From positions 12,462,001 to 12,526,000 of the forward strand of contig OZ059896.1 of the NCBI GenBank assembly GCA_964057225.1: a stretch of 64,000 bases of DNA, given 5' to 3'. The notes below the pieces were generated by a model, which saw only the letters and a list, made by a program, of their open reading frames with translations, was not told where the DNA came from and did no database searches. This document shows, one piece after another, positions 18,701 through 38,415 of the stretch (positions are counted from its first letter, which is position 1; each line of letters starts with the position of its first letter). This stretch comes from Auanema rhodensis (taxonomy: Eukaryota; Animalia; Nematoda). A program made the position numbers and the translations under genes.

Positions 18701-20218
18701 CTTTCCTGTTTTTTCCTGTAATGGTTCGAACCACGACGAACGACCTTTGAACTGCTGCAACTAAATAAGGCCTTTCGAATGAAGGTGTTAGTTTGTTTCG
18801 TGTAGATATGACTTTTATCACTTTTATCATAACTAACTCATTAACCTGAATTTATTTATTTCTTATTTCTATTTCGTGTATTGTACCGTTGTTCATTTTT
18901 CTCTGTGCATGTTTCAATTCTATCTTTTACTATAGCAGAAGTGCTTTCCTTTTGTATTAGTGATCTATTGACAAAACCTTCTGTAGAATTGACTGGTTCT
19001 TCAGTTTGGAGATTATTTCCAGGCAAGTAGTGGTCAATAGGAAGTCTTGCATCCCGACCAAATAATACTATGTATGGACTAATAGATGTTGATGAGTTTG
19101 GTAACGTCTTGATTGCAAACATAACTTTGGGTAGGTGTAAATCCCAGTTAGTTTGTTGTTCATTCACGAATGAAATGACAGCTTTTTCTAAAGTTTTATG
19201 AAGTCTTTCAAATTGTCCATCAGCATTTTAATAGTATGGCAGTGTAGTAGTGTATTTAATTCTAAATTGCTTACACATAGCTTGAAATTCAGAAGACTAA
19301 AAGCTACTACCATTATCGGTCACCATACTCATTGGTGGTCCATATATGAAAACAAATCTAATTACAAACCTTTTTCTTGCTACTGTCGTGTCGTGTGGAT
19401 TAATTGTTTGGATAGACTATAAGCAGAAAAAAATTTCCAGGGACAATGTCAGAGCACATGGATACAGTGGAGGCTGTTCGGAATGAACAGCTACAAAATC
19501 TTTTTGCTGATTTAGTCGGTAGATGTAAGGCGCTTTGATTTTCAATAACCAAATTTGAAATCAAAACTCATTACTCAGGCTCAAATTTTAAGAAACACAA
19601 ATTCGAGCAGTAAAGTAAAGTTAATGATATAACGACTTTTTTGCACTTTTTATGTTCGATATATATATATGTTCTTCTCTTTTTTTTTTTTTCGGGCAAA
19701 ACCGAATGCTTCGATCAATATTTTAAAAATAACGTAAAGAGATAAAAGAATTCATTATCATAACACAACAAAATACAGTATTAGTTATACGCTGACAAAT
19801 AATACAAAAAAAAGAAAAATAATAAGATAGAGATGTATTGAGTTAAGACTAACATAGTTTTAAAGCAACCGATCTGGGTTAGTGCAAAAATAAATTCAAG
19901 TTATATGTATCTCATTTCGTAGGCATGGCTGGTTTAGGCTTTAGTCATTTGAATAGCTTGCACATGTTTAGCATATGTTTGCAGATTTGACATTGAAACA
20001 ATATATATACCAATTGAAATAAATTGAAAAAAACTAAGTTCTATGCTGCTTTATAGTGTAGTATAGAATTATTTTACAGGACTTAAGTTTTGGACAAAAA
20101 CTGTAGTAAATATGTGAAACATATATCGGCCAAAGCAAAAAGCTAAACTTGAAAATTCCGCCTTAAATTAAATTCGACTCGAGGCCGCTTGGATTCATTT
20201 TAATATATTATTTACGTC

Positions 20219-20790
20219 AGTAGAGAGCCATGCCGAATTTACTAACCACGCCCCCAAACAGTTGCTAAAAACATACTTTTGAGGGCGTCAGCTGCTGAAA
20301 ACATACTTTTGGGGGCGTCAGCTGTCAAAATCATATTTTCGGCGTCAGCTGTCAAAAATATACTTTTCCTCCCGAGGCAGGCTCTCGAGCCTGCGCATGG
20401 ATCAAAATGCATGATTTTTTTTTTTAAATTATTTTTTAATGTATTATTTTAAATGATTTTTTATTATTTATATATTTGTTAATTGTATTTGTAAATATTT
20501 TTAAAATTATTTCTTTTTAAATGTATTTTTAATATTTATATATGTTTTAAATATTATTATTTAATTATTTCTTTTTAAATATATTTTATATATTTTTAAA
20601 ATATTATTAAAGTTATCTCCTTTTAAATGTATTTTTAATATTTATACATTTGAATAAACTTTTTAATATATATTGTTTTTGTTTTAATTTATAAAATTTG
20701 AATATATATATAAAAGCTAATTAATATGTTCACCGTACCTCTTATGGGTTAATCAATGGAACTCATATCGAAGGTTAATTCGATAAGATA
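20219..20790 (+). repeat. Maverick left terminal inverted repeat; imperfect homology continues to about 21460
   Basis: The first ~200 bp are near-identical to the reverse complement of ~37020-37224. An AT-rich imperfect stretch follows, then 20721-20790 matches 36590-36660, and 21270-21460 matches 36370-36560. Confidence 0.9.
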
Positions 20791-21941
20791 TATTTTATAT
20801 ATTTATTTTTTAATTTTATTTGTTTATATTGTTTATAGTTTGTGTTTATTATAGTTTATAATTATTAATTTAACTTTTAAAAAGTTTGTTGTTTATCTAG
20901 GCGAACCATTTTGTTCACCGTACCTCTTATGGGTAAATCAATGGAACACATATCGAAAGTTAATTCGATAAGAACGATATGAAATACAAAAGTTAATGGA
21001 ACACATATCGAAGGTTAATTCGATAAGATCGTTAAAACAGGTGCCCTGACCCACACAAAAACCACATGGCAAACGTTTTGTTCATTAAAATATGATAAAT
21101 AGCTGTACACCACATGTACCAAGTTGCCTAATATTTTCAAATTACATGAAAGAATAGTTTAAAGAAATTGTTTTAAATTTTATATTAGTATATTCTAATA
21201 TACTAACTCAATAAAACACATATCGAAGGTTAATTCGATAGGATTCACAAACAATTGTGTTGTTTCCAATGGAACACATATCGAAGATTAATTCGATAAG
21301 ATCGTTAAAACAGGTGCGCTGCCCCACACATGTACCACATGGCAAAAGTTTTGTTCATAAAAATATGATAAATAGCTGTACAGCACAAGTACCCATAACG
21401 CTAAAGAATACTTACTATGCCAAGGGGTCATGGGTATATAGTTTTTAGTATCAAAAATGTTAATGGAACACATATCGAATATCAATTCGATAAGATTGGT
21501 GAAACAGATACGTTGACCCACAATAAACCAAATGGCAAAGCACTTGTTCATTAAAGTATAACAAATAGCTGTATAGCATATGCATCAAGATTTCTAATAT
21601 TCTCAAATTACGTGGAAAGAAGAGTATATAGAAAAAGTTTTAGTGTGTATATTACTAATATTCTAATACCCTAACTCAAAGAACACATATCGAAGATTAA
21701 TTCGATAAGATTGTTGAAACAGTTGCGCTGACCACAACAATACATGCGTATTTATTAACAGCGGATTGGCAACTGCCACTGTTGACAGCTGTAATATGAT
21801 ACAATGTTGAGTGTTGGCAACATTGTTACGTGACAATAAAACAACTGACTGTTCTTGCAATGAAGTGTAATATAAATGTGTAAAATGAAATATGGATAGC
21901 TACCTCTCAGAGTTTGCATAATTTTATTCTGACAAGATACA

Positions 21942-24900
21942 ATGGCTGCTAACAGGTTGTGTTTTTTCCTATCTTTTTTTTTTTAATTAAAATATTTATT
22001 TTCAGTTATAAGCGTGTATGTGAAGATTTGGGGTTCGATTATGAGGAAATTTATCAACTCAGGTAATTTAACAATATTTTTAAAATATACATCTTTGTTT
22101 TTTTTTTTAGTAAGCGCATAAAACTTACCGAGAGTGGTGGTGTTGAGCTGTGTGACCCCGCAATAACCGCTTCCAATAGTGGTCCCTCGTCATCGAGGGT
22201 TATTGAAGTTATCACCTTGGATGACAGCGATAATGAGTAAGCTATCATATAATGAAAAAGCATGAAATTTTTTTTTTTCAGAGAATGGAATCCCGAGATG
22301 CCATCAACTAGTGGAGAACAATTAGGAGGCGGTTCATCCTTCAACGATGTTTGTCAAATAAAGGTACGAGCTTTTAACCTTTTTTTTTCATGTTACAATT
22401 CTTTTCACTCTATATCTTTTATTTGATTACATATCTTGAGCAATTTTGAATTCTGCCATCTATTTTTAAACAAATCATCATACATTTGGTGGCTTTTTGA
22501 AAAATAAAATAAAATCTTATCCCAAATCCATGCCATAATATCATTTATTAAATTTTTATTCATTAAAATACAATTAAATTTAAATATTTTGATGCTCAAA
22601 AACTGACACATTTAAATATTTTGTATTTTTCAAATCATTTCACTCCATCTCTTTTATTTAATTTCATATTTTAAACAATTTTAAATTTTTACCACTACTT
22701 CATAATTTTTATTTATTAAACTTTTTAATCATTAAATTAGACTTAAATTTAAATATTTTGATGCGCAAAAACAGAAACATTTAAATATTTTGTTTTTTCT
22801 AAACCATTTCACTCCATTTATTTTAAACAATTTTATATTTCTACCACTATTTCATAATTTCATTTTTTGAATTTTTGATCATTAAAAAAAAAAACATTTA
22901 AATTTCAATATTGTGATGCTCAAAAACTGAAACATGTAATTGATTTATATTTTCTAAGCCATTTCACTTCATCTCTTTTATTTAATCACATATCTTGAAC
23001 AAATTTAAATTTCTATCACTTTTTCATAATTTCGTTTATTAAATTTTTAATCACTAAAAAACATTTAAATTTCAATATTGTGATGCTCAAAAACTGAAAC
23101 ATTTTAATATTTTGTAATTTTTAAACCATTTCACTTCATCTCTTTTATTTATATATATTTTAAACAATTTTATAATTCTACTATTATTTAATTTTTATTT
23201 ATTAAATTTTTAAACATTAAAAAAAAATTGATGCTCAAAAACTGAAACATTTAAATATTTTGTATTTTTCTAATCGTTTTGAAACAAACTAAACATATAT
23301 TTGAAAACATTTCAATTAAATAAAAAATAACGACTATAACAAACAAAGAGACATAATAATTTTAAGCAAAAGATGAAACAATTCATATATATTCTTAAAA
23401 CTATATTTTTTTAAACTTTTAAAAATAAAAATTAAAAAAAAGCATGTAAACTGTTATAAATGTTGTTTATTATAGTGGTCACACCGGCGCATAAAACGCA
23501 CCGGTCGTTTTACCAACGTGGTCGTTCGATCGCTCACGTTCCCACACTTGGAAAATGTTGATGAACCAATGCATGTTATCATGCCGCGGTTATTCAACGA
23601 ATTCCTTGATCGTTGTCTTGCTGAAAGCGGTGTGCCTGATAAGCAAAAAGCCTTATTTTGTTTATCAATTGAGCACCCTTCCTTTGAAAAGGGCTCCATA
23701 TTTATGGACTTTCGTAGAAGGGAGCATCTGGATGGCGTAGTAATTATGAATGCCATCAGCAAGGTGCAGCAATCAAAACGAGAGGCTGTGATCAGCCAGG
23801 CAATGAATATTGAAATGTATGTGTTTGATGAAAGGCCAGCGCAGCCAAGCCTGATGCCGGGTGAAGGTAGAGTCGGGTATTATTTTGACCCCGAACTCAA
23901 AATACCTGGAACCATTGCCAACACTGACTCACATTGTCTGGCTAGATCAGCAGTTGTGGGAATGTGAAAAGCTGACGAGCTGGCCACTGAAGATGGCGAT
24001 GAGAAGCGAAGGCTGCAAAACCTTCGTCGCAATTACATCTTATTGCCAAATCAGCCACACCATATCAATTTATTAAATAGGTGTGGTATTTCTGTAGATT
24101 TACCAAATTATTATTTAATTCATTTAAACATTATTGCCAGCTGTAATACAAACTATAAGTTTGTAGTATATGCTAGACCGCCTGGACAGCGTATGTACAC
24201 TATCCAGAAAATGTTTAATGAAGCGGCTAGCAAATTGGTAACACTAGGTTACCGAAATAATCACTATGATTGTATTACAGCTGGTAGTCGTTCGAAAATT
24301 TTTGATGGTATTATATGTCAACACTGTAAGTTATCTTACAATACAGTGTTGCACAGATGTAAAGCCAAATGTAAAAAATGCCACACCTATAATTGTAATG
24401 CGATGGGGAATGTGGTTGAGAGTAGCGTGAGGTGTGATAGTTGTAGAGTTTTGTTTAAAACTCAACAATGCTTCGATAGGCATTTGCGAAAAGCCTGCCG
24501 AAAATTCAAGGTATTTTGTGAAAATTTAAAGTTGTACATAACAAGCTTAAATTCAGACATGTGTGGCGTGTGATCACTATCACATGGTCCGTGCTGATAG
24601 ACCGCACAATTGCAATGAAAAATTCTGCAAAAAGTGCGGTCAGACAAAGCCTGAAGAGCACTCTTGTTGTTGGGTTCCACCTAACGACAAGAAGAAGGCT
24701 CAACTAAAAAAGAAGCAAGAAAAGTTCAAGGTTTGTTTTTAACATCTTTACAAGTGTAATGCTTACTTGTTTAAGATTATATTTTATGACTTTGAAACAG
24801 TTGTGTTAAAAAACGGCACAAATGTTCATGAATATGCAGATGAACAATGGCCCAATATGGTTGTGTATAACAAATTTCGTGAAAGTTGTATAGATGCCAA

Positions 24901-27705
24901 TTCCTGTGAAAAATGCACAACCAAGGAGGGCCATTTTGGGTACCAACAAGGTGATAGTGAATGGTCTGTAACAGATCGTTTCCTTGATTGGTTACTCAAC
25001 TTTTCTGAGAATGATAATGCAATTGTGATTGCGCATAACGGATCGCGCTTTGACATACATTTCTTGGTGTCTAGGCTGATAAATCGTGGAATATATCCTG
25101 ACCCCATTTTAAATGGGACCAAGATTATTAGCATGGTTGTCAAGCCTTTAAGAGGTCAAAACTTTAACCATTTATGTTTTAAAGATAGTTATTTACTAGT
25201 GCCTTTACCCTTATCAGCGTTACCCAAGACATTTGGTGTACCTGATATGAGTAAAAGACAATTCCCATACCTCTTTAACCACCCAATAAATTATGGCAAA
25301 GTGCTACCATCCTTGCCACCAAAGCATTACTATTGTACTGCTAGAATGAAAGCAGAAGACCTTGCTTCATTCAATATTTGGTATGAGGAGCGTAATCAAA
25401 GTGTGTTTGATTTTGATGAGGAGCTTCTGGAATATTGTAGGACAGATGTCCGTATTTTAACCAACTGTATGAAAGTGTACATGAAGTTGGCCACCGCCAC
25501 CACTGGCTGGAATCCTGTCATACAATGTATGACATTCGCCAGTTTCTCTTTATTCCAGGCAAGTTTTTTAAAATACAAGCATTTTCAAAACTAGTATATT
25601 ACAGTTGAAAATGAACCACATTAAAGAGAACCAAGTGGGTATTCTGCCTGAGACTGGTTATTATGCCGGCCAGAAGCAGAGTATAATTGCCATAAAATAC
25701 ATAAAATGGTTAGAACACGGATTAGGCCGCCCATTAATGCATAAGCTTAATGGTGGTGAATTTGTTGTGCGAGTAGATGGCCAACGCTATCTACTTGATG
25801 CTTATGACAGTGTGGCTAATCACGGCTATGAGGTGAGTAATTTGTAATAAATGTAAAAAATGAAAAATTTTGTAGTTTAATGGCTGTATTTATCATGGTT
25901 GCCCCCAGTGCACCAACAAGACTGCTATTGCACCAGGCAGAAATGGTGAAACAATGGAAGAGGTAAGCAATACTTTTTTTAATCATTTTAAGCTGAAACA
26001 TTTAGGTTTATGAAAAAACCATGAAAAGGCTGGAGGCTATTCAAAGCCAGGGCATTAGTGTAACCACTGTGTGGGAACACGAAATTACTGCTCAAATGTC
26101 ATCAAATGATCAAATGGCAAATTTTATGAAGAACAATGAGGTTGTAATTCGATTGGCACTTCGAGATGCCTTCACCGGCGGCCGAACTCAAACATATAAG
26201 CTTCTGGCCCAAGCTTCGGATAGATACTCACTAGAGTATGTGGACTTTTGTTCACTTTATCCATATGTAACGGCATTTGATGCCTATTACCCTGTGGGTA
26301 ATCCTAAAGTGATTACTGAGGGCTTTGAGAGTTTTGAGGCATGCTGCCCATACAAGGGCCTTATGAAATGTGACGTGCTTGCACCCACAAATTTGTTGTA
26401 TCCTGTATTAGGAACACGCATAGGCGGTAAATTAATTTTTACAAACTGCCGCACATGTGCAAACAGTGGCAAAAATGTAACATGCCCGCACCAAGATGAT
26501 GAAGACGCTCGAAAGCTGCATCTGACTGTAACGCATGTAGAGCTCGAATGTGTCATACAGCGTGGCTACAAAGTGCTTCATGTTTATGAGGTTTGGCACT
26601 GGGATGAATGGCAGAAAGGAGGCCTATTCAAGGATTTTGTACAAAAGTACATAAAAATTAAGCAAGAGGCATCGGGCTGGCCTAAGCCAAATATGACAGA
26701 GGCTGAAAAGGTATGTGTCATGAAAAGTATGGCATTAAATAACATTTTACAGCTAAAATATCTCCAAGAGCACGAGGAGAACACTGGTGTTGCTCTGGAG
26801 AGCAGCAAAATTGAAAAGAATGCGGCCATGCGTAGCATTGCCAAACTACAGCTGAATAGGTATGTAAACTTTTAAAAATAAAAATTTACAAATTTGCTTA
26901 TAGTGTATGGGGTAAAATGGGTCAAAGACCGGATAAAGCCCAAACCAAGATTATTGGTGTTGAGGATCCTGAAATTGGTAGGATCATAACTGATCCTGCA
27001 AGGGAACTCACGGGCTTCAAAATTGTGGACGATGTGGCGTACTGTACAACAGTGCCAGAAGACTCACACTTGGCACCAGCGCCGTTTACAAATGTAGCCA
27101 TAGCGGCTTATACAACCGCTCATGCAAGGCTACTATTGTATAAGGCAATGGAAAAAATTGGAAAGAACTTGGTGTATACAGGTAATTTTATACTTTGTAT
27201 ACAATTTAAACGTACATCATTTAGACACCGATTCTCTAATTTATTTAAAATGCCTCGATCAGCCTGATCCAATTGAGGATATGAAGGGTGAATGGTTAGG
27301 TAAACTAACCTCAGAAATACCCGATGGATGGTCAATGACCAAATTTGTTTCACCAGCTGCAAAAGTTTATAGTTATGAGCTAGTAAATGCAGCTGGCCAG
27401 GTCAAGTATATCACCAAGGCAAAGGGAGTGGTAAGTATAAAAATATATTATTGAGAAACTTTTTAAAATTACAGACGCTGGACCACACGGCAGCCACCGT
27501 GGTAAACTATCAAAGTATGGAACGATTGGTTCGAGGACTCGTGATGGATGGAGAAAAATTGGTTTTAAAAACCAAAACAACGTTATTAAAGAGGCAGCTT
27601 GGTGCCATATCCACGATGGACATGACAAAGAGTACCAAGGTCGTAATGGATAAACTTTGTTATCTAGACGATTTTAGTACTTTACCCTATGGTTATTGTG
27701 AATAA
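21942..27705 (+). CDS. pPolB: Protein-primed family B DNA polymerase (pPolB), 14 exons, ~1370 codons, one in-frame TGA at 23965-23967
   Basis: Exons: 21942-21955, 22006-22062, 22111-22236, 22282-22363, 23476-24510, 24557-24730, 24776-25558, 25605-25832, 25876-25962, 26006-26710, 26753-26859, 26904-27181, 27225-27430, 27475-27705. They sum to 4113 nt in one frame. Splicing rebuilds the motifs K|IIFYDFET, YE|FNGCIYHGCPQC, KLQLNS|VWGK and YTD|TDS. Also present: HNGSRFD, YCRTDV, DFCSLYP and an OTU-like DSHC...HYD. The 5' four exons are less certain than the rest. Confidence 0.92.
22560..23280 (+). repeat. AT-rich degenerate tandem repeats (~150-170 bp units) inside pPolB intron 4 (22364-23475)
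   Basis: The core GATGCTCAAAAACTGAAACATTTAAATATTTTGT recurs near 22590, 22760, 22915, 23082 and 23230. Confidence 0.8.
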
Positions 27706-27843
27706 TTTTCAATATATTTGAATTTATAAATTTTATTATTGCGTGTATATTTGTATATGGTTGTATTTATAGATTTTTATGTATAGTTGTATTAATAAAT
27801 TTTATTCTTCTCATCAAATGTTTTAAAGAGTTTATTACATACA

Positions 27844-29178
27844 TTACAAACTGGTATCAATATATGGAGCACGATTGTTGTCAATTGAAAGAATAGAGTC
27901 ATATTCTGCATAAACAATAGCATATAAACCCTCTTGCGGCGTTTGTTGACCAAATTCCAATTTCAGGGCCACATTACCTTGTCGTATAACATCAAATAAC
28001 TCGGACGAGTGTACAGTCGGTGAAATATCAAATACAAAAAATGTGAACCCAGCTTTATACATTGCTGGTGTAATACCATTGGATGAATCTGTACGACCAA
28101 GGCCCAAACCTTCCAACATGTCAATATATGCTGTGGCATAGGAAGAACGCCATTCTAAATTATAAGGGCGGGTAGGTATTACCCGATTGTTGAGCGTCAA
28201 GTATATATTTTTCAATTCAAACGGTTTAAAGTTGAATGGCGAATGTTTAAAAGTACCATTATAAGCGTGTGCGCCGACAAGACCTACTACAACACGTTTC
28301 GGTGTATGCGACGTGAATAATATGTTATTGGGTGAATCCAAACGACCTCCTTCTATGAAATAAGATCGCATTTTCACTGACGTCATGGGGTAGTGTATTC
28401 GTTCCTTTACAAGTTTATCTTCTATAGCCATAGCTAATCCAGCGTTTAGATCAAACTCTTGAATAAGCAAGTGCACATCGTTGATATCTATTTTCAGGTT
28501 TGGAAACTCCTCCATCATTGCAGCATCCTTGCTTTCATTATTCCATCCAAGTGTGTCAATTAAGAAATTATCACGGTTTGGATATGCAGTTAGCTCCATT
28601 TTTGAATAGTTTACAAACAGTCGTTCCTGATTGAATAAGTCGATACTGATGGGAGCAGCCATCTCACACAATATGCCATTTTTAACAAGCCCTTGTCGCG
28701 CTCTAAATCCAGGACTGGCTGCATTATCTATATATCTATCCGCATAATACCCTGATATGGCAAGTTTGCTCTCTTTAACATCGTTGCTATACATTAGAAT
28801 ATTCTCAATATATGTTTTGTAGGCATGATTTACGGTAGAGTCATACACGCTAACATCACCAATTTTTAAATGATACGAGTGTATCAAACTGGCTGCAAAT
28901 TGTTGGCATGGTGCAAAAACAAGGTTGTCTAGTACTGGATCACCGTTTGTGGTTACAATTTTGAATTTTACATTCAACCAACACCTTCTCAGATTAAGAA
29001 ATGATTTGGAATTTTGGGCTATAACAAATTACCATGGTCCTTGAGGAAGAAAAGTATTTTTTAAAGGAACTTGTACAGTACGAGTGGATTCAACACCTAA
29101 TGCCGACGCCGGTATGTCACTATAATTAATATTAGGTAAAAGGGCTTGTGCTGATTTTGAATCTATCAATTTAGCCAT
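27844..29178 (-). CDS. MCP: Major capsid protein (double jelly-roll); premature TAA at 29029-29031
   Basis: ATG at 29178 gives MAKLIDSKS...QGPW*FVIA, in frame with the 377-aa ORF. Polinton MCP-like motifs: DLFNQERL, PKRVVVGLV, PFNFKPF, FFVFDISP, IVYAEYD. Confidence 0.9.
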
Positions 29179-29631
29179 TTAAATACGATACGACCGCTCA
29201 CGAGTTATGCACAGACGCTTATGAGGTTTTGTGGTTTTGCGTCGTCGCCGCTTGCCCAAGCCGGTAAGATCTCGTATAGCCTGCCGGCCGGCTGTTTTAA
29301 GAGTTTGCTTGATATTATCGCCCTTGAGCACCCCATCAACAATTTCATTGCTAGTTTTTAGCAACTGGCCGCCAAGAGGTGAATTTACAACTGGACTATT
29401 GCTTACAGCACTGGATAATGCATTCCTTCCAGCATTGATGAGATTTTGGGCTATAGGTGATTGAATAATGCGAGGTAAAAACGATGCCAAAGTTGCCAGT
29501 ATACCACCCAGGCCATGACCTCTCTGCATACCACGTTTAAACATCATTCCACTAAATGGCGCCCCACCCATTTGTTGATTCAAAAGTGTTGTCCATTGAA
29601 TTGAGTTCAAGTCTAGAAGGAGGTGTGGCAT
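29179..29631 (-). CDS. Putative virion core or membrane-lytic precursor protein (adenovirus core/protein VI-like)
   Basis: QMGG|A, QRGH|G and LTGL|G resemble adenain cleavage sites. It has an amphipathic GLGGILATLASFLPRII segment and a basic KRRRRK tail. Its stop directly abuts the MCP ATG. Confidence 0.65.
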   Translation of the reverse strand: MPHLLLDLNSIQWTTLLNQQMGGAPFSGMMFKRGMQRGHGLGGILATLASFLPRIIQSPIAQNLINAGRNALSSAVSNSPVVNSPLGGQLLKTSNEIVDGVLKGDNIKQTLKTAGRQAIRDLTGLGKRRRRKTTKPHKRLCITRERSYRI

Positions 29632-29681
29632 ATTGAACCGCACGTGCGCAATACAAAAGTTACACTAGATCATTTTACTAA

Positions 29682-30137
29682 ATGTATTCGTCTGAAATAG
29701 CGTCACTATTGCGATCTGTCCGCATCACTCGAAAACTATTCCTCGGTGTATTTAGCGCCGATACTCTACCCAAAACACGTCGAAAGAACTTTGCACTTGT
29801 TGTAAATACTGACACACACGATAAACCGGGCACACATTGGCAAGTCATCTTTGTACGTAATGATCAAGCCTACTTTTTCTGTAGCTTGGGTTATAAAATG
29901 AACAAGTACATTCGTCATTATCTGGCGAAATATAAAAATATAAAAGTTAATACTTGCAAACCACAACGCATAATTGAATACACTTGTGGTGGTTATGCAA
30001 TATTTGTAATACTAATGTTGTCAGCTGGTAATACATTTGAAAGCATTTGTTCATTTTTTAAACTATTACAAAACGATGATGTCTTTATTAAAGCTTTTAT
30101 GCATAAAGTATTCGACTATAAATTATCTAGCATATGA
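29682..30137 (+). CDS. PRO: Adenain-like cysteine maturation protease
   Basis: VNTDTHDKPGTHW (His) and PQRIIEYTCGGY (Gln/Cys) motifs typical of Polinton proteases. Confidence 0.92.
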   Translation: MYSSEIASLLRSVRITRKLFLGVFSADTLPKTRRKNFALVVNTDTHDKPGTHWQVIFVRNDQAYFFCSLGYKMNKYIRHYLAKYKNIKVNTCKPQRIIEYTCGGYAIFVILMLSAGNTFESICSFFKLLQNDDVFIKAFMHKVFDYKLSSI

Positions 30138-30395
30138 TCAACTTTGCCATTAAAACGTCACCTGCTACATTAGGTGGTCAGTTATGAATATTCCCTGTCA
30201 CTGTGAATTATGTATAAGATACACGTTGGAACAATCTGTGCCAACACCCCTGTACAAAAAGATTTTGAAACGTATTTCAGTGCCATTCATTAAAGGAATA
30301 TCTCTGGGACTACGCTTTTGTACTACACTAGTCATTATTCCACTCATTATATAAAAGTGAGTTGACTGTGTGTGGTTGTTTTTTATTTTCCTCTA

Positions 30396-30860
30396 ATGGA
30401 ACTTTTATGTAACAAGTATTGTGTTACGTGCAAGGAAATATTTTCATCAGTCAAGCATTTTAGTGATCACATATTGAAAAGACATGACGGGATTCAACCC
30501 GTATGTAACAGTTATATCAGCAATGCTGACTTTATTCAAAAATATGGACATTTGGATGGTGTTCGTAGACGTTTGTGCCCTTATTGTAGTGAAACTTTTG
30601 GAACAAGATTCATTTGTCAGCGTCATATTCGGCGTCTTCATAATAGTAATGGAACGAATGGTAAAGATGGTGATGGAAATGATACCAGCGAACCCTCTGA
30701 AAAAACTGAGGAGTTTGTACAGTCAACCGAACCAAAACGATGCCGCTGCAATAGTAACCGAGAATATTCACAACACGAGCCGCGCATCGAACAAAACGGC
30801 GCTGAACTACCTTTTAAACCTTCGAAAATCGTAATGTGGTCTTGTATAACTGTTGAATAA
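30396..30860 (+). CDS. C2H2 zinc-finger protein with two fingers (accessory gene)
   Basis: CVTCKEIFSSVKHFSDHILKRH and CPYCSETFGTRFICQRHIRRLH. ATG at 30396, TATA-like TATATAAAA near 30348, AATAAA at the stop. Confidence 0.75.
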   Translation: MELLCNKYCVTCKEIFSSVKHFSDHILKRHDGIQPVCNSYISNADFIQKYGHLDGVRRRLCPYCSETFGTRFICQRHIRRLHNSNGTNGKDGDGNDTSEPSEKTEEFVQSTEPKRCRCNSNREYSQHEPRIEQNGAELPFKPSKIVMWSCITVE

Positions 30861-30865
30861 AACAT

Positions 30866-31723
30866 TTATTTCACATTTTTAACATGTAATGTAACAACTG
30901 TAGAACCATAATTAAATTGCATAGGGCGACCAAATTCATCTAAAATTTCAATACGTATAGTATCGAGTGTTTGCTTAGTGATTGGTACATAACGAATAGG
31001 ATTAAATGTTTTGACAATCATTTTACCAAATTCAGTGGGAGGTGGTACAGGTAAACATGCAAGTAAATTAGCTTTCACATTACCGAGAATGGAATATTCT
31101 ACAATATCACAATAGATATACATTGTATTAATGTTATTTGAAAAATCAATGGGGCGCCTGGCTATTAACGTGTCGTTGATAATTTTATTCTCAAAGCCAA
31201 GAAAATATGCGAGAGCATCACCGAGTGTTGCATTCAATAATAGCCGCTTACTTGTTACAAACTCTATGCGTTGTAGTGTTTTGTTAAACCGAAACGTGGC
31301 GTCTGCCAGCATTTCCTTGACAAGTTTAGCCTCAGCTTGTCGATTATTATACCACTTTTTCACATCTTCATCTTTATCTATCAAACCCTTTATACGTGCT
31401 TCTTCCTCAGCTCCAAGAGGTTTAGTGCTGCTAGCAATAAATTGTTCTTTTCCAGCATTGATTCCGCGTATTATTTCATCACCATTTGCATAGTTACCTT
31501 TGGGCAAGTGCAGAATAAACTTTCTGTTGGAAAAACGTAGTGTATAAGAAAGATTTTCTTGTACATTTAATATCGAACACGGAAAAATTATGTCTGTCAG
31601 CCCGATGCAATATCTGTTATTGCATAGCCTTAATGTTTCAGGTAACCTGGTAAGAAACACTGATGAGGTATTACTTTTTTCAGAGTCAACTGATGACGGC
31701 AAAGTAATGTAAAAATCATCCAT
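30866..31723 (-). CDS. mCP: Minor capsid (penton) protein
   Basis: N-terminal MDDFYITLPS, then YIYCDIVE...LL and C-terminal IRIEILDEFGRPMQFNYGSTVVTLH, the Polinton mCP pattern. Confidence 0.85.
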   Translation of the reverse strand: MDDFYITLPSSVDSEKSNTSSVFLTRLPETLRLCNNRYCIGLTDIIFPCSILNVQENLSYTLRFSNRKFILHLPKGNYANGDEIIRGINAGKEQFIASSTKPLGAEEEARIKGLIDKDEDVKKWYNNRQAEAKLVKEMLADATFRFNKTLQRIEFVTSKRLLLNATLGDALAYFLGFENKIINDTLIARRPIDFSNNINTMYIYCDIVEYSILGNVKANLLACLPVPPPTEFGKMIVKTFNPIRYVPITKQTLDTIRIEILDEFGRPMQFNYGSTVVTLHVKNVK

Positions 31724-31802
31724 CACAGACCACCACCTGATGCGTGCACACTAGTATAAATGAAATCATTTGCATTATAGGTACATTTACGAGTGGTTGA
31801 TT

Positions 31803-32450
31803 ATGGTTTTCAGCTTCAAACTACCCAGTCAGACAACTGTAATAGGGGCAACGCAATGTGGTAAAACTACCCTTATAAAACGTATATGTGAAAATACTGA
31901 AAAGTTTTTCAACGTCCCCATTGATAGAATATTCTGGTTCAGTCAATGTGGAGCATCGTCAGGTGTTCCATTAAATGATGAGCGTTTAATAGTTATTCAA
32001 GGACCACCTGATCCGGATATAATAAAAGAACAAAAGGGAATGAACACCATACTAGTGCTGGATGATTTGATGAATTTTTTCTCATCGAATAAAGCGGCTA
32101 AAGAATTATTCAACAACCTTTTTACAGTGTGGGCACATCACTGGAATTTGGCAGTGTTTAATCTTGTGCAAGCTGCATTTCAGCTAGACAGGACCAGTCG
32201 AATTAATAGTACATATATAATACTGATGAAAAGTCATTCGGATATATTACAAATACGTAATTGTCTGCAACAATTATTTGGCCCCCGCTTTAAAAATGCT
32301 CTAGAAGCATATGATGATGCAATGTCTACACCCTATAGTCATTTACTGATTGACAACCATCCTTTAACAAATGAGAAACAGCGTATACTATCAGATATAA
32401 CAGCGGAGCACCCTATTGTTTATGTAGCCAGAAATATATTCAGTGTTTAA
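31803..32450 (+). CDS. A32/FtsK-like DNA packaging ATPase
   Basis: Walker A GATQCGKT, Walker B ILVLDDL, plus HHWN, RINSTYI and YSHLLID. Confidence 0.92.
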   Translation: MVFSFKLPSQTTVIGATQCGKTTLIKRICENTEKFFNVPIDRIFWFSQCGASSGVPLNDERLIVIQGPPDPDIIKEQKGMNTILVLDDLMNFFSSNKAAKELFNNLFTVWAHHWNLAVFNLVQAAFQLDRTSRINSTYIILMKSHSDILQIRNCLQQLFGPRFKNALEAYDDAMSTPYSHLLIDNHPLTNEKQRILSDITAEHPIVYVARNIFSV

Positions 32451-32462
32451 TGTGCATGTTCA

Positions 32463-32771
32463 ATGAGTGGTCGTGTTTTGTCAAATTACAACTTTTTATC
32501 TTCTTGTGCCAAAACCCCTTGTTCTGTTTCCTCATTTTCTTTTTCACAAATTGAAATTATTGTTGAAATTGTATTTAATATTGTGAAAAAAAATAATTTT
32601 CTCTTAACTAACAAGGAATATAAAACCCTTTTGCCCATATCCTCATTATTACGTCAAATAGCTTTGATACGCACACCCGAAAAGGCTAAAACTTTATTGG
32701 CAACGATTTCACACAAACCATTGAAAACAATAGTTTCATGTGGAATTGCTTATTTTGGTTTTAAAAGATGA
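32463..32771 (+). CDS. Small conserved Polinton protein of unknown function
   Basis: 102-aa intact ORF tightly packed downstream of the ATPase. IVEIVFNIVK resembles the small conserved ORF of Polintons. Confidence 0.7.
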   Translation: MSGRVLSNYNFLSSCAKTPCSVSSFSFSQIEIIVEIVFNIVKKNNFLLTNKEYKTLLPISSLLRQIALIRTPEKAKTLLATISHKPLKTIVSCGIAYFGFKR

Positions 32772-33505
32772 AACTCAATCATAAATATCGTCTAATCCCT
32801 GTGGATGATGAAACGCTGAATATAGACAAGTTTGATGCTGAATTGAAGCTCTTACGAGAGAATAAATCTATACCCAATTATAAAAAGGCTGAACTATACG
32901 AAGACTTGATTACCCGTCTCAAAAACTATAGAGAAAGCATAGATGCTCCTATATCAGTACAAGTGGAAAATGCTGATCCACCATTATTGCCAGAATACAA
33001 GCTGCCACGAAAGTATAACGATCTGTGGGAAAGATTTCCAGAGGTGCGTACAAACAAAAATAACCAACTTGTGATTAATAATAAGCCCGTACCAAACACA
33101 AATATTACAAAAATTTTGGATTTTGTACTGGATAAAACAAAAACGGAACCCAATGGATTCTCAGTATTAGCCAAATTCTTAGCCAGTAATGGGGTCTCTA
33201 GCCCTAACAAGAAGGCAAAAAATGTAGAGCCTGCCGTCAGTAACAAGGATTCAGTTGATCCCGTGCCTACATCCACATCGGCTGTCACAGACTTGGATGC
33301 TACTATTAATATATTACCTAGAACACCACGTCATCGTAAGGCTGTTATTCGATATTCACCCTCTCCGCGTCGTACATTCAAATCCAAAGCTATACATAAA
33401 AAGGCAAAACCCGCTGACACTGGTGAATCATATTACACACCTCAGGCGGGAGAAACACAGAATGGCAAAGGCCGTAAACGATTCTACATTAGATTATGGA
33501 AGTAA
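32768..33505 (+). CDS. Conserved Polinton protein of unknown function upstream of the integrase
   Basis: 245-aa ORF overlapping both neighbours (ATGA overlap at the 5' end). Basic low-complexity tail ending QNGK|GRKRFYIRLWK. Confidence 0.75.
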   Translation: MKLNHKYRLIPVDDETLNIDKFDAELKLLRENKSIPNYKKAELYEDLITRLKNYRESIDAPISVQVENADPPLLPEYKLPRKYNDLWERFPEVRTNKNNQLVINNKPVPNTNITKILDFVLDKTKTEPNGFSVLAKFLASNGVSSPNKKAKNVEPAVSNKDSVDPVPTSTSAVTDLDATINILPRTPRHRKAVIRYSPSPRRTFKSKAIHKKAKPADTGESYYTPQAGETQNGKGRKRFYIRLWK

Positions 33506-34529
33506 TGTTTTGGAGAACATTTATTATAATATTAAGCATCCAGCTTCTTATACGTCTGCCAAAAATCTATTATTGGAAGCGCGAAAGCATGGCATCGCAA
33601 AAGCACAAGTTGAAAGTTTTTTGCAAGACTCTGAAACTTTTACACGTCATAAACCAACCAGACTGCATATGCAGACTAAAAAGACTAGAGGCTGTGGTCG
33701 ATTCCTAACAATGCAAGCAGATTTGGTTGATATGCAAAAATATAAAAAATCAAATGACGGCTATGCTTACATGTTGACCATGATTGATGTTTATACACGC
33801 ATGTTATATGTTAGGCCTTTGAAAACTAAAGGTGGTTTAGAGGTTGCTACTGCATTTGAAAATGTATTCAAGGATTTTATACCAATCCAACTAATAACGG
33901 ATAACGGTGCAGAGTTTTATAATAGTCATTGTGAAAAACTATTCAAAAAATTTGCCATACTGCATGGATCAACAAGTTCACCACAAAAAGCGGCAATGGT
34001 GGAGCGAGCAAATAGAACTTTAAAAACGCGCATGATGAAATATCTCTATTACAAGAATAATCATCGATGGATTGATATACTAGATGACTTGGTCGAAGGA
34101 ATAAACAAATCTTATAATCGGTCGATTAAAATGCGCCCCGTAGATGTTACAGCAAATATATTCGTTGAAGAATATGCACCAGCTGTTCGCAACCGATTCA
34201 AAATTGGTGATAATGTTCGCATAAGCAAGAACAGGCGTACTTTTGAAAAAAGTTACAAGTCTGGATATACAATGGAACTATTCACAATTGATGAGATTGT
34301 AGCCGGGAACCCAACCGTGTATAAACTTGTAGATTATAATGGTGAACGTATAAAGGGTATATTCTATGAGCCTGAACTTGTGTTGGCTACTAATAAAAGC
34401 AACCAGTACTATATTGAGAAAGTTTTGAAAGAGCGTACACGAAATGGTAAACGCCAAGTATTTGTAAAATGGAGTGGCTATCCCGACAACTTTAATGAAT
34501 GGATAAATGCAGAAAATTTAAATGTATAA
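33462..34529 (+). CDS. INT: Maverick c-integrase (DDE) with C-terminal chromodomain
   Basis: IYYNIKHPASY, QADLVD, TDNGAEF, VERANRTLK. Chromodomain YYIEKVLK...VKWSGYPDNFNEWI. First in-frame ATG at 33462. Confidence 0.93.
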   Translation: MAKAVNDSTLDYGSNVLENIYYNIKHPASYTSAKNLLLEARKHGIAKAQVESFLQDSETFTRHKPTRLHMQTKKTRGCGRFLTMQADLVDMQKYKKSNDGYAYMLTMIDVYTRMLYVRPLKTKGGLEVATAFENVFKDFIPIQLITDNGAEFYNSHCEKLFKKFAILHGSTSSPQKAAMVERANRTLKTRMMKYLYYKNNHRWIDILDDLVEGINKSYNRSIKMRPVDVTANIFVEEYAPAVRNRFKIGDNVRISKNRRTFEKSYKSGYTMELFTIDEIVAGNPTVYKLVDYNGERIKGIFYEPELVLATNKSNQYYIEKVLKERTRNGKRQVFVKWSGYPDNFNEWINAENLNV

Positions 34530-34575
34530 TTTTTCACTGTTGTTGTAAACAATTGTATTAATAATAATAAATGAT

Positions 34576-35423
34576 TTATTTGATCAATCGTTCATATTGT
34601 AACAATAAAAAACCAGCAAAACATAAAAGCCAAGACAATGATATAACCTATAATTATAAACTGATTAATATTTAAATTTTCAATGCTTACCAGTTGGTTT
34701 GAGAGTCGGCTGTTGATGGATAATTTCAAACTTCAAGAGCTGGAAAAAAAAATGTTACGGCTAAGAAAATTTAAATATAACATAACAAAATCAACCAACT
34801 GTCCATTAAACAGTTTGTGCTTGTTGTAGTCAAAACGATGGATCAAAACGGATAAGCATATTCAAGTTGAGCGCCTGTTGACTTAATTTAAAGTAGAACA
34901 CATTCTGCTTATAACCAAAAGACTTGACAGTTGACTCATCAGTATAAATGGCAATGTAACCCATATTATTCAACAATTGTTTTGATGACATGCTAGAATA
35001 AGAACGCATCTGTAAAAGAAAAAATAATAATTAGAATTAATAATTTTATAATCTTACATTGATTGTTGAATTTTCAGGTTTATAATGACGGAAAACTTTT
35101 AAAAGCCCTAAGGCATCATTCCTCGCTCTACACTTGACACAGAGGCTGAAACAGTGGTACTCGTCTACGACTTGCAATGTATCTCTACAAGTTTTGCAGA
35201 GACATATTGGTCTCATAACTACAGGCTGTTGTGGAGAGCTATCCTTTGAGATTTGTACCTGCTTTTTTGGTGTGTCTAAACAAAAAATAATTGATAACAA
35301 AAATAAAACCTTACCAAAGAATGTGGCAGCAAAGTTGGGTCCTGGTGTGGGTGGTCGTGGAACATCCGGTTCCGGTGTCGAAGGTACAATATTCTCTACA
35401 TCAACAAGAGCGGAACGCTTCAT
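34576..35423 (-). CDS. Spliced accessory gene of unknown function: Pro-rich, Cys-rich, with a hydrophobic C-terminal exon; 5' end and exon chain uncertain
   Basis: Canonical introns on the minus strand at 35314-35276 (GTAAGG..TTTAG) and 35057-35010 (GTAAGA..TTTTACAG), plus a GTAAGC..TATAG intron near 34690-34649. CLCKTC...CFSLCVKC. The last exon reads GYIIVLAFMFCWFLLLQYERLIK*. A TGA near 34830 interrupts the chain. Confidence 0.5.
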
Positions 35424-35519
35424 GTTTGTAGCCCAATTGGAGGCTTTTCCTAAACAACAACGAACTTTTACGTCTAGGGTCCAAGTAGAGTAGAGGAAAG
35501 TCCTAGCAGCAGTCTGTTG

Positions 35520-35645
35520 ACGTTGGATCAGATCGTCGACTTGTTGGCAGAGGTGGATCGGCGAGAAGATTTGGTGGCGGAGCTGGATCGGAGAGTAGAC
35601 TTGTTGACAGAGCTGGATCGTAGAGTCGACTTGTTGGCGGAGCTG
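35520..35645. repeat. 30-bp tandem repeat, about 4 copies
   Basis: Units like GAGCTGGATCGGAGAGTAGACTTGTTGACA repeat with a 30-nt period. Confidence 0.85.
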
Positions 35646-36369
35646 AAATGCAAATTTCGGTCTAAAAAATTTTGCCACCTTTTATACAAACTTCGTTGTA
35701 AAGCTATACCCACTCCGCCTCTTTCACAAAACAGTTGACTGCTGTATGCGGCTTTTCTATTTGTTATATATTACAACAAATGTATGCATTTATACATTAA
35801 TTAGCAGTTTGTTGCGCAAACAGCTGCCAAATGCGCTAAAATACACCGATTGCGCCAACAGTTGCCGGATTAACAACCTGTAAACTATCCGCTTATTAAT
35901 TACTTGTTACATCATTCGATTTCGTAAATACAAATATTTAACAATAATTCAACTCATTTGTGACAAGTCCCTATACAATAACAACTGTCATCCAAAATTG
36001 TGGAAGATTACAATAGGATCGTTTAATATTGTATTCATATTCTTATTATAACAGCTGTGGTACACTCTTACTTTTATAGTTTAGGAAACACTAATTCAAA
36101 ATGTTGGATCCTACTGAGGAAACGCAGGATTGTTGCGAAAAACAGACTTGTACACATCCGATTACAAGTACAACATTTCCAGACACTTTGTAAAAAAAGA
36201 AACTCTTACAAAATGTTAACACATGTTCTAATTTTAAATGAAAATTTATTGTTCAATAAATATATTACGAAACATTTATTCTATTCTTGAACATAGTTAT
36301 GAAATACATTAGCTATCAGAACATTTATAAACTATTAGGGCTACAACAACAATTACTTTAAAGTAACAT

Positions 36370-37224
36370 TTTTGATGTTAAAAAGTTTGAAAATATTCGT
36401 ATATACTCATGACCCCTTGGCATAGTAAGTATTCTTTAGCGTTTTGGGTACATGTGGTGTACAGCTATTTATCATATTTTTATGAACACAACTTTTGCCA
36501 TGTGGTACATGTGTAGTGCACCTGTTTTAACGATCTTATCGAATTAACCTTCGATATGTGTTTCATTAAATTTAGTTTAAATATTTATTACTTCTTATCG
36601 AATTAACCTTCGATATGAGTTCCATTGATTAACCCATAAGAGGTACGGTGAACATATTGATTACCTTTTAAAAATATTTAAATAAATAAAAAACAATATA
36701 TATGAGAAATAATTTATTCAGTTTTAAAGATACAATTAAAAAATATATAAATATTTTATTCTTATTCAGTTTTAAAGATACAATAAAAAAATATATAAAT
36801 ATTAAAATACATTCAAAAAGAAATATTATTAAAAATATATTTAAAAAAAAACAATTAAATAATAATATTTACAAATACAATTTAAAATATATATAAATAT
36901 TAAAAATACATTTAAAAAGAAATAAGTTTAAAAATATTTACAAATACAATTAACAAATATATAAATAATAAAAGTTCATTTAAAATAATACATTAAAAAA
37001 TAATTTTAAAAATGATTTTAAAAAAAAATCATGCATTTTGATCCATGCGCAGGCTCGAGAGCCTGCCTCGGGAGGAAAAGTATATTTTTGACAGCTGACG
37101 CCGAAAATATGATTTTGACAGCTGACGCCCCCAAAAGTATGTTTTTAGCAGCTGACGCCCTCAAAAGTATGTTTTTAGCAACTGTTTGGGGGCGTGGTTA
37201 GTAAATTCGACATGGCTCTCTACT
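36370..37224 (-). repeat. Maverick right terminal inverted repeat
   Basis: Reverse complement of the left end, including the GGCGTCAGCTG repeats and the GCAGGCTC-NN-GAGCCTGC hairpin. Confidence 0.9.
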
Positions 37225-37693
37225 TACGTCGCACACACCAAAACGTGTTGTAGTAGGTGTTGTCGGCGCACACGCTTATAATGGTACTTTCAAGCATTCG
37301 CCATTCAACTTAAAACCGTTTGATTTCAAAAATATATGAATACTTGACACTCAACAATAGAGGAATACCTACCCAACTTTATAAATCAGAATGGCGATCT
37401 TCCTATACCACAGCATATATTGACATGTTGGAAGGTTTGGTTGTACAGAGTCATTCAATGGTATTACACCAGTAATGTATAAAGCTGGTTTCACATTTTT
37501 TGTATTTGATATTTCTCCTACTGTGCATTCGTCGAAGTTATTTGATGTTATACGACAAGGTAATGTAGCCTTTAAATTGGAATTTGGTCAACAAACGCCG
37601 CAACAGGGCTTATAGGCTATTGTTTATGCAGAGTATGACTCTATTCTTTCCATTGACAACAATCGTGCTCCTTATATTGATACCAGTTTGTAA
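37225..37693 (+). pseudogene. 3' part of the MCP gene of an older Maverick; its 5' continuation is at 20181-20218
   Basis: Homologous to the reverse complement of 27844-28315 (TSHTPKRVVVG...IDTSL*), with frameshifts. Confidence 0.9.
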
Positions 37694-37744
37694 TGTATAT
37701 AATAATTTCTTTTTTTTAATTTCATACTTTCAAAGTTCACCACT

Positions 37745-38400
37745 GACGCAGCCGTGTGGTCCAACGTCTGACAACTATAGAATTATTTAACAAGTCAAAA
37801 CTCGTACTTACCACTCCCTTTGCCTTTGTTACATATTTTACATCACCAGCTGCATTTACTAGTTCATAGCTATAAACGTTGGCCGCTGGTGATGGTTTTT
37901 TCATAAACCTAAATTTTTCAAATTAAAATATTCATAAAAATCATAATTATTTCTTCCATTGTTTCACCATTTCTGCGTGCTATAGCAGTCTTGTTGGTGC
38001 CCCGGGGAGAACCATGGTGAATACAGCCATTAATCTACAAAATTTTGCATTTTTTACAGTTATTACAAATTACTCACCTCATAGCCATGATTGGCAACGC
38101 TGTCATAATCATCAAGTAGATAGTGTTGGCCATCTACTCTCACTGCAAATTCGCCACCATTCAGCTTATGCATCAATGAGCGGCCCAACCCTTGTTCTAG
38201 CCATATTATATACTTTAAGGCTTATATACTCTGCTTTGTGATAATGATCACAATTTTCAAATGTCTGAATTTAATCTTATAAAATTTTATATATTTTTTT
38301 CTAAATTACATTCAACATTCCACATGTTTTTTTAATATGCCTGTCAAAGCATTGACGAGTTTGAAACAAAGCTCTTCAATTATCACATCTTATGCTACTT
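37745..38400 (-). pseudogene. Deleted pPolB remnants of the older Maverick
   Basis: Colinear pieces of exons 14/13, 10/9/8 and 6/5, joined by large deletions, with intron boundaries retained. Confidence 0.8.
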
Positions 38401-38415
38401 TCAACCTTTCAACCA

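Follow-up and report, generated by a model that had tools for sequence, protein, structure and literature searches.

A full-length Polinton in Auanema rhodensis with a polymerase gene divided by 13 predicted spliceosomal introns

The DNA polymerase gene (pPolB) of a Polinton in the nematode Auanema rhodensis is divided into 14 exons by 13 inserts that carry spliceosomal signals. The element lies in a 64,000-nucleotide stretch of contig OZ059896.1 (positions 12,462,001 to 12,526,000), which is termed the window here and whose numbering is used throughout. It is likely that the 13 inserts are an inherited feature of this Polinton family, that they were gained singly at sites ending in AG, and that they have been kept as cheap and probably expression-aiding additions to the gene.

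The window holds a complete Polinton of about 17 kb, with terminal inverted repeats (TIRs), a 6-bp target duplication, a jelly-roll capsid gene and an integrase gene. The same 6-mer is found at both flanks (20213..20218 and 37225..37230). The left TIR (20219..20805, plus strand; repeat family D20) begins with AGTAG and its inner repeats run on to about position 21740, while the matching right TIR (36578..37224, minus strand) ends with CTACT. The outer bases of the two ends are identical at 200 of 202 positions, and a longer alignment of the pair gives 82% over 658 columns.

Between the repeats, pPolB (21942..27705, plus strand) comprises 4,113 coding nucleotides, or 1,370 codons and a stop, and matches Pfam family PF03175. 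It is followed by an intronless gene for a major capsid protein of the double jelly-roll type (27844..29178, minus strand), whose predicted model (pLDDT 75) matched the capsids of iridovirus, mavirus, PBCV-1 and Sputnik in Foldseek (E ~1e-13 to 1e-11). A small basic ORF (29179..29637, minus strand) contains glycine-rich motifs that we take to resemble protease sites. Next come an adenovirus-type maturation protease with His and Cys motifs (29682..30137, plus strand; PF00770, E 9e-4, under the cut-off), a C2H2 zinc-finger ORF with weak Pfam matches (30366..30860, plus strand), a likely minor capsid protein ORF, so called from size and position alone (30866..31750, minus strand), and a packaging-type ATPase with Walker A and B motifs and weak ATPase matches under the cut-off (31764..32450, plus strand). 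Two uncharacterised ORFs of 106 and 246 aa (32451..33505, plus strand) had zero family matches in the search. An intronless 355-aa rve integrase with a chromodomain (33462..34529, plus strand; PF00665, E 4e-9; PF00385, E 5e-8) has the D, D, E motifs, and a cargo-like gene (34600..35700, minus strand) adjoins the right repeat and contains short intron-like segments at 35057-35010, at 34690-34648 and near 35315.

Of the features by which a Polinton or Maverick is recognised, TIRs, 6-bp target duplication, pPolB, integrase, jelly-roll capsid, and packaging ATPase and protease are present, the last two from motifs and weak Pfam matches. The region expected to form a further such feature, a PRD1-like terminal protein domain at the N-terminus, aligns with relatives from about residue 100. 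A further trait, intronless core ORFs, is absent from pPolB and present in the other core genes, and all nine internal genes lack introns. An intronless core is a trait in descriptions of the Polinton family and not a defining criterion of it.

Removal of the 13 inserts gives one frame from an ATG at 21942 to a terminal stop at 27703-27705. The sequence-only reading had proposed the same set, twelve introns of 42-50 nt and one of 1.1 kb, and all 13 were located with their splice ends, 12 being GT-AG and one GC-AG. Its claim that removal restores one frame holds for the 14 exons, but it overlooked an in-frame stop in exon 5 (23965..23967, plus strand), in the vOTU region, which disrupts this copy.

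All 13 introns are on the plus strand. Introns 1 (21956..22005, 50 nt), 2 (22063..22110, 48 nt) and 3 (22237..22281, 45 nt) are all in phase 2 and have weaker support; they are common to a relic copy of the family. Intron 4 (22364..23475, 1,112 nt, GC 0.18) consists mostly of tandem repeats of about 165 nt, and its counterpart in the relic is about 630 nt long with both splice sites intact. Introns 5 (24511..24556, 46 nt), 6 (24731..24775, 45 nt, directly 5′ of exonuclease motif I), 7 (25559..25604, 46 nt), 8 (25833..25875, 43 nt), 9 (25963..26005, 43 nt) and 13 (27431..27474, 44 nt) are in phase 0. Homology supports all six, together with the relic for introns 5, 8, 9 and 13 and with DNA contigs for introns 6, 7 and 13; intron 9 varies in length from copy to copy. 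Intron 7 is the GC-AG intron; if it is drawn instead as a 42-nt GT-AG intron (25563-25604), the frames fail to join. Introns 11 (26860..26903, 44 nt, phase 2) and 12 (27182..27224, 43 nt, phase 1) lie within polymerase motifs B and C, respectively, and are also supported by homology. Twelve of the 13 introns break the frame or contain a stop. The exception, intron 10 (26711..26752, 42 nt), is in frame and stop-free, so its call rests on homology: relatives lack it, and two relatives at 53-55% identity end here. The catalytic motifs reported to be cut (LNS/VWGK, YTD/TDS and YE/FNGC) are indeed cut, the first two within the codons for Ser (phase 2) and Asp (phase 1) and the third between codons by intron 8.

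The inserts appear, from their letters, to be U2-type spliceosomal introns in both ends and consensus. Their GC content is 0.12-0.29 compared to 0.35-0.50 for the exons, G is found at donor position +5 in 9 of 13, and T is found at acceptor position -5 in all 13. A strict intron pattern gave 7 candidates on the plus strand of the 4,230-nt core compared to none on its minus strand, and none in the other core genes of the Polinton. Eleven of the 13 exons upstream of an intron end in AG, against a background of 6% (p 3e-12). Two other AT-rich stretches, 24081-24140 and 25681-25725, are not taken to be constitutive introns, as they correspond to coding sequence in relatives.

Comparison with other Polintons bears out the proposal that the gene is a Polinton pPolB. 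The spliced protein, with X placed at the junctions, was aligned to five long relatives, four of which gave 30-32% identity over 1,280-1,338 columns (E <=1e-157) and the fifth 24%; overall, identity is about 31% over some 1,300 columns, end to end. PF03175 is matched twice (E 8e-21 and 7e-16), and the vOTU Cys and His residues (a domain name taken from PMC11161782 for the region 5′ of the exonuclease), Exo I-III and Pol A-C all align with those of relatives. At junctions 5-13 the alignments to long relatives contain 0-1 gap columns. Comparison with 19 long relatives revealed no run of 5 or more residues in the conserved part that is peculiar to the window protein, and no block at any junction that is peculiar to the relatives. 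In an Auanema gene model at 61-64% identity, the sequence continues unbroken where introns 8, 9, 10 and 11 would lie. Coding sequence in homologues at the sites of the inserts would speak against their being introns, and relatives have none at introns 5-13. These nine are non-coding in orthologues, with introns 1-4 upstream of alignable sequence; support is weaker for introns 1-3 and for the start codon, as relatives align only from about residue 100.

All four polymerase relatives with an identity of about 49% or more are fragments, and capsid relatives at 49-71% identity are whole single ORFs. In a quick tree (62 rows, 240 columns, including 34 of 41 long relatives), exon 10 falls beside an Auanema protein (SH-aLRT 92), and its grouping with pPolBs of Caenorhabditis and Steinernema is loose (93, drawn open). 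The pPolB2 type has been distinguished by an HNH insertion and a clade of its own (Jeong et al.); the window protein has no insertion of its own relative to the 19 relatives, and the tree was drawn without a labelled pPolB2 reference. Scans of viral contigs for relatives found none.

The intron-dense structure was also proposed to characterize a lineage, and comparison between copies agrees. Next to the element lies an older relic of the same family (37231..39724), deleted and rearranged, with a capsid end and pPolB pieces on both strands. It has introns 1-5, 8, 9 and 13 in common with the window gene, and the gap columns between the two amount to 46 of 335 in introns and 7 of 1,018 in exons. 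The ratio dN/dS between them is 0.18 for core pieces and 0.28 overall; exons 1-4, which have few sites and no homology support, give 0.70. The relic itself is decayed, with damage to the splice sites of introns 2 (the acceptor) and 9. In three DNA sequencing runs, no contig joint leaves out a predicted intron, and contigs diverged by up to about 15% are gapless across introns 6, 7, 10, 11 and 13. Among 40 of the 466 variant rows that were listed, 24 of 38 exon variants fall at third codon places. Introns make up 9% of the stretch and hold 8 of the 12 indel rows listed (of 13), while exon indels keep the net frame; where several indel rows stem from a single contig, they depend on each other. 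These patterns support the view that the intron structure is shared by a multi-copy family whose exons are under purifying selection.

Expression evidence comes from X14, one of three runs guessed to be RNA, in which uncovered parts of the gene are uninformative. Its contigs derive from copies diverged by 8-12% and leave 12 of the 13 junctions without RNA support. One contig seems to run from exon 8 straight into exon 9, with a short side of 17 letters (the tool asks for 31) at depth 4, and retains intron 9. By eye, another candidate splice, a cryptic 45-nt GT..AG segment within conserved coding sequence of exon 8 (25681..25725, plus strand), is seemingly skipped in one RNA-like contig. Actual splicing of the pPolB introns, and with it the suggested dependence on host splicing, is weakly supported by these two splice-like joins, each in a single low-depth contig.

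Introns in Polinton polymerases extend beyond this lineage, as sequences from distant relatives indicate, a point that the sequence-only reading overlooked. An AT-rich, GT-started insert in the LNSxWGK motif is found in 7 of 16 metagenome loci (L003-L007, L010, L011), 5 nt from the site of intron 11. These pPolBs differ from the window gene in having one intron of 85-90 nt and about 30% protein identity, so that theirs is likely a separate gain; in L006 the other genes are single ORFs. Motif B inserts occupy at least three different positions, their labels are scattered on the quick tree, and L008, a close sister of intron-bearing loci, is intron-free. Of 47 truncated library matches, 17 end within 8 residues of the motif B intron site, and 6 of 150 library matches end in the same LN-R read-through as that of the window gene. 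Breaks near the intron 7 site in L007 and L010, and those in L002, L003 and L013, proved to be frameshifts or deletions. Searches with a motif-plus-donor pattern gave 4 matches, none of them in a pPolB, and another pattern gave none.

Under the preferred explanation, transcription of pPolB by RNA polymerase II would start in the region of the left terminal repeat and proceed inward, and the major spliceosome of the host would excise the introns to give a product of 1,370 residues with the probable layout terminal protein, vOTU, exonuclease and polymerase. The introns were likely gained one by one at AG-ending sites and would be kept because they cost little and probably help ordinary expression. 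Lying near the repeats, pPolB and the cargo gene may be expressed like host genes, which would explain why these two gather introns.

Broader and more speculative is the idea of a hidden class of animal Polintons in which the replicase alone is placed under the host spliceosome. The motif B intron would act as a switch whose retention yields only the primer protein, replication would be tied to splicing state, and the gene would be hidden from both small-RNA surveillance and ORF surveys. We think this unlikely. A narrower version, in which regulated retention, chiefly of the motif B intron, yields a short TP-vOTU-exonuclease product without the palm and so gates replication or the ratio of primer to polymerase, also seems rather improbable. 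It draws on the restriction of introns among core genes to pPolB (at an equal density, the other genes, about 6.3 kb, would lack introns with a probability of 6e-6), on the repeated occurrence of breaks at motif B, and on the contig spliced at intron 8 with intron 9 retained. However, that contig may be incomplete pre-mRNA, and the codons for Ser, Trp, Gly and Lys that are conserved in motif B are natural proto-splice sites, so that a hot spot needs no function. The scattered motif B positions and the intron-free sister locus also count against a conserved device, and 13 introns exceed what a switch requires. No special switch is necessary to account for the data.

It is more doubtful still that the introns were selected to protect the polymerase transcript from the small-RNA silencing that acts in the germline on foreign genes with few introns. 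In Caenorhabditis elegans, introns are described as a barrier to HRDE-1 nuclear silencing, with more 22G-RNAs on a one-intron than on a three-intron sensor (PMC5554785), and few-intron genes are reported as targets of ERI-6/7 siRNAs (10.1101/2024.01.15.575659); the four introns within the first 94 codons of pPolB would suit such a role. Yet the integrase, ATPase and capsid genes also need expression and are intronless, and Mavericks of Caenorhabditis spread with intronless core genes. Moreover, a simple autocorrelation, which is not the published PATC algorithm, gave intron 4 no PATC-like An/Tn periodicity of 10 bp (z 0.44, with 1.17 for the relic).

The window copy itself yields no whole polymerase, since a stop in exon 5 disrupts pPolB; another, at codon 50, disrupts the capsid gene. 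All 13 contigs (3, 2 and 8 from the three DNA runs) that cover the pPolB stop read otherwise. These stops, the thin RNA support and the occurrence of introners in integrated Polinton-like elements of dinoflagellates (PMC12166617) could suggest decay products or introner insertions that were never in a working gene, but this reading is largely refuted and very improbable, since the positions are common to diverged copies whose exons, read in the spliced frame, are under purifying selection, the near-identical outer repeats and perfect target duplication indicate that the introns travelled with the element when it moved, relatives with an identity of about 54% stop at the site of intron 10, and the 12 short introns resemble one another no more than shuffled ones do (mean pairwise score 14.0 compared to 13.4; 9.5% of 200 shuffles as high).

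Those dinoflagellate eupolintoviral elements share with the window element spliceosomal introns within integrated Polinton-like DNA, and their introners are described as copies of mobile families, mostly post-integration and mostly in non-coding locations (PMC12166617). The window introns are instead mutually unlike, inherited across copies and confined to one core gene, in an animal host. Nematode pPolB1-type Polintons are closer, with about 17 kb, TIRs, a 6-bp duplication, pPolB and an intron-bearing cargo gene at opposite ends, and integrase, ATPase, protease and jelly-roll capsid genes (PMC10748475; 10.1101/2022.07.12.499685); vertebrate Mavericks share the core gene set, inverted repeats and 6-bp duplication (PMC8097293). 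Nematode Maverick core genes are called intronless in published accounts (PMC10748475; 10.1101/2023.08.22.554363; 10.1101/2022.07.12.499685), in contrast to the 13 introns of the window pPolB, although Repbase entries and supplements could mention intron-bearing Polintons. The general annotation of the window element recognised no fusogen among its genes. In adenovirus, a Polinton-derived protein-primed polymerase is likewise made from E2 mRNA that needs host splicing (PMC7851563).

A Polinton family with an intron-split pPolB would need the splicing machinery of its host to copy itself. Because surveys take Polintons to be intronless and use long ORFs to count intact copies, a 14-exon polymerase family is scored as a pseudogene. 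As described by Jeong et al. (PMC10748475), a pPolB ORF has to reach 900 aa and a tBLASTn match 650 aa, and fragmented ORFs are classed as pseudogenes; with a longest stop-free stretch of 289 aa, the window pPolB fails the 900-aa cut-off, as had been anticipated for ORF-based surveys. Whole lineages may therefore be missing when working Polintons are counted, when their host range is described and when their trees are drawn, and the accumulation of database ORFs that break off in motif B suggests that intron-split pPolB is common. Introns of 42-50 nt may fail to splice in other animals, which would restrict horizontal transfer. With one gene rich in introns and nine that have none in the same element, the family offers an internal control for whether introns protect against germline silencing, and it makes intron gain datable in a mobile, virus-like genome.

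The element is a member of the Polintons, set apart by an intron-dense polymerase gene. It spans 17,006 bp (20219–37224); its outer repeats agree in 200 of 202 positions, and an exact 6-bp duplication flanks the element. Its protein-primed DNA polymerase gene (pPolB; 21942–27705, forward strand) comprises 14 exons, which total 4,113 nt in a single frame, and 13 introns, one of 1,112 nt and the other 12 of 42–50 nt, a size in keeping with nematodes. GC content is 0.12–0.29 in the introns compared to 0.35–0.50 in the exons. Intron ends are GT-AG in 12 cases and GC-AG in intron 7, and 11 of the 13 exon 3′ ends carry AG (background 6%). Nine introns are not a multiple of three in length, and three of the other four contain a stop; intron 10 (26711–26752) is the only one in frame and stop-free. 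A strict intron pattern run over the pPolB core returned seven candidates on its coding strand, none on the opposite strand and none in other core genes. The sequence-only reading had described 13 introns whose removal restores one frame; the 13 segments exist, but it overlooked that exon 5 contains an in-frame stop (23965). The window copy is thus broken. Because all contigs over this site in three DNA sequencing runs (3+2+8) read otherwise, the stop is either private to the window copy or an assembly error.

The intron positions recur in other copies. The full-length element lies against the rearranged relic of an older family member (37231–39724), into which it seems to have been inserted. 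The relic is 72–89% identical to the element and keeps introns 1–5, 8, 9 and 13, with damage to two splice sites. Gaps between the two occupy 46 of 335 intron columns versus 7 of 1,018 exon columns, and dN/dS rises from 0.18 in core pieces to 0.42 where exon 5 begins and 0.70 across exons 1–4. The stretch was also found in 11 of 24 listed sequencing runs, from three studies and under three organism labels, none recorded as RNA. In three DNA runs compared over 23480–27700, no joint skips a predicted intron, and contigs run ungapped through introns 6, 7, 10, 11 and 13, from near-identical copies as well as from copies ~15% diverged. Among 40 of 466 variants listed, in rows that are non-independent, third codon places hold 24 of 38 exonic variants (p = 1.6e-4), and introns hold 8 of 12 indels, the exonic ones being net frame-preserving.

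Alignment to homologues, with X placed at every junction and at the exon 5 stop, bears out, for introns 5–13, the prediction that the inserts are absent from relatives. The conceptually spliced protein matches four long single-chain relatives at 30–32% identity over 1,280–1,338 columns (E 1e-157 or better) and a fifth at 24%, with 0–1 gap columns at junctions 5–13. Against 19 long relatives, the conserved region has no run of five or more residues found only in the window protein, and no junction coincides with a block confined to the relatives. The same alignment locates the vOTU Cys/His, Exo I–III and Pol A–C motifs, following the domain layout in the accessible text of PMC11161782. A gene model from Auanema sp. 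JU1783 (61–64% identity) is unbroken across the sites of introns 8–11, and its continuity over intron 10 settles that segment as an intron. No relative aligns over residues 1–94 (exons 1–4), which leaves splice signals and the relic copy as the sole basis for introns 1–3 and the start codon. The four polymerase relatives at ~49% identity or more are all fragments, while capsid relatives at 49–71% identity are intact single ORFs. Two of these polymerase fragments, P0007 and P0055, end a few residues past K-V at the intron 10 site, which we infer would reflect read-through into its GT donor. The close relatives P0049 and P0036 start or end abruptly elsewhere within the exon 10 region, a hint of possible intron positions absent from the window copy.

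RNA-like data come from X14, a run only guessed to be RNA, with five contigs (depth 2.4–4.2) from copies 8–12% diverged. In record 4, 17 loose letters before 25877 match the end of exon 8 at 14 of 16 positions and are, by eye, unlike intron 8. This resembles a join at the predicted intron 8 junction, with a short side of 17 letters against the 31 required. The same contig retains intron 9. Within exon 8, a GT..AG 45-mer (25681–25725), AT-rich and conserved as coding sequence among relatives, is apparently skipped in frame in record 1 and kept in record 2; this is likely cryptic splicing. At most, the joins show that family transcripts meet the spliceosome. Splicing at the 13 junctions, as first proposed, is thus echoed at one; the other 12 are without RNA-like support.

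The introns are concentrated in the replicase. Nine internal genes, including the capsid, protease, ATPase, rve-chromodomain integrase and small ORFs, are each a single intron-free frame; at pPolB density, zero introns in their ~6.3 kb has a probability of 6e-6. The capsid gene (27844–29178, reverse strand) has one internal stop in the window copy, at codon 50, and its modelled product resembles double jelly-roll capsids. For pPolB and the capsid alike, the closest relatives with a name come from Auanema, so the host is likely a nematode. A cargo-like gene adjoining the right repeat (34600–35700, reverse strand) contains three or more short intron-like segments; the genes with introns are thus the pair that read inward from opposite ends of the element. 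It encodes Ser/Arg-rich 20-residue repeats and a Cys-rich stretch, with no Pfam match. Inside both element ends (20933–21742 and 36400–36660), upstream of pPolB and the cargo-like gene, lie repeated units of ~30–70 nt built around a short palindrome, possibly promoter or origin elements. Two sequences 81–86% like the terminal 110 nt (12256–12366 and 42667–42785) lie within another repeat and may mark where a related or non-autonomous element ends. Bel/Pao-type and gag-bearing retrotransposon pieces occur at 59148–63271 (reverse) and 2754–5695 (forward), and the remainder of the window is repeat-dense.

Intron 11 interrupts polymerase motif B (LNSxWGK), and this site is also interrupted elsewhere. 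In six of 16 metagenome loci, members of a distant Polinton family, motif B is split by a single GT-AG intron of 85–90 nt that lies 5 nt away from the intron 11 site: L003 (3551–3640), L004 (3615–3703), L005 (2728–2816), L006 (7582–7671), L007 (3451–3537) and L010 (2089–2173). L011 has the same insert, near 3366, with a damaged acceptor; it is missing from L008, which the tree places as sister to these loci. The remaining L006 genes are each a single ORF. Among 150 library matches, six end LN-R like the window gene's own read-through, six end LNSxW-like and one ends LNSFCK; against a crude uniform null, 17 of the 47 proteins that are truncated stop no more than 8 residues from motif B. ORF calls ending inside the motif (P0023, P0032, P0064, P0086, P0113, P0127, P0021, P0022, P0078, P0130, P0132 and P0083) come from many unrelated proteins, 36–65% identical to one another. 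Such ends are what read-through into a splice donor would give, making the motif a likely intron hot spot. On a quick tree the labels are scattered (five changes for LN-R, a count no higher in 304 of 500 shuffles), a pattern consistent with introns gained repeatedly at proto-splice sites; a single old motif B intron may also be compatible with that tree.

Most likely, pPolB would be transcribed inward from the left end, its introns removed by the host major spliceosome and the product translated as a terminal protein–vOTU–exonuclease–polymerase chain. The introns would most likely have been acquired one by one at AG-ending sites and then retained. That splicing controls replication is an unproven proposal, to which the motif B hot spot would lend some weight. 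Equally unproven is that introns shield pPolB from germline silencing; it has a basis in C. elegans (accessible text of PMC5554785), but intron 4 lacks 10-bp periodicity and the remaining core genes are intron-free. Introners are described for dinoflagellate Polinton-like elements (PMC12166617, in part); the pPolB introns are not copies of an introner.

In the accessible text of the sources, core genes are intronless in a C. plicata Maverick and in intact vertebrate Mavericks (PMC8097293), and the portions available of PMC12220804, PMC11662393 and PMC8502044 mention no spliceosomal introns in pPolB. Among openly accessible papers, searches found none on intron-rich animal Polinton polymerases. 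The suspicion that ORF surveys would miscall this gene as decayed is well founded: its longest stop-free stretch is 289 aa, and Jeong et al. (PMC10748475), as far as its accessible text goes, required at least 900 aa for pPolB and took fragmented ORFs as pseudogenes. The intron-dense pPolB is real, and what is unexpected is its gene structure, the restriction of introns to the replicase and the survey blind spot that these imply.
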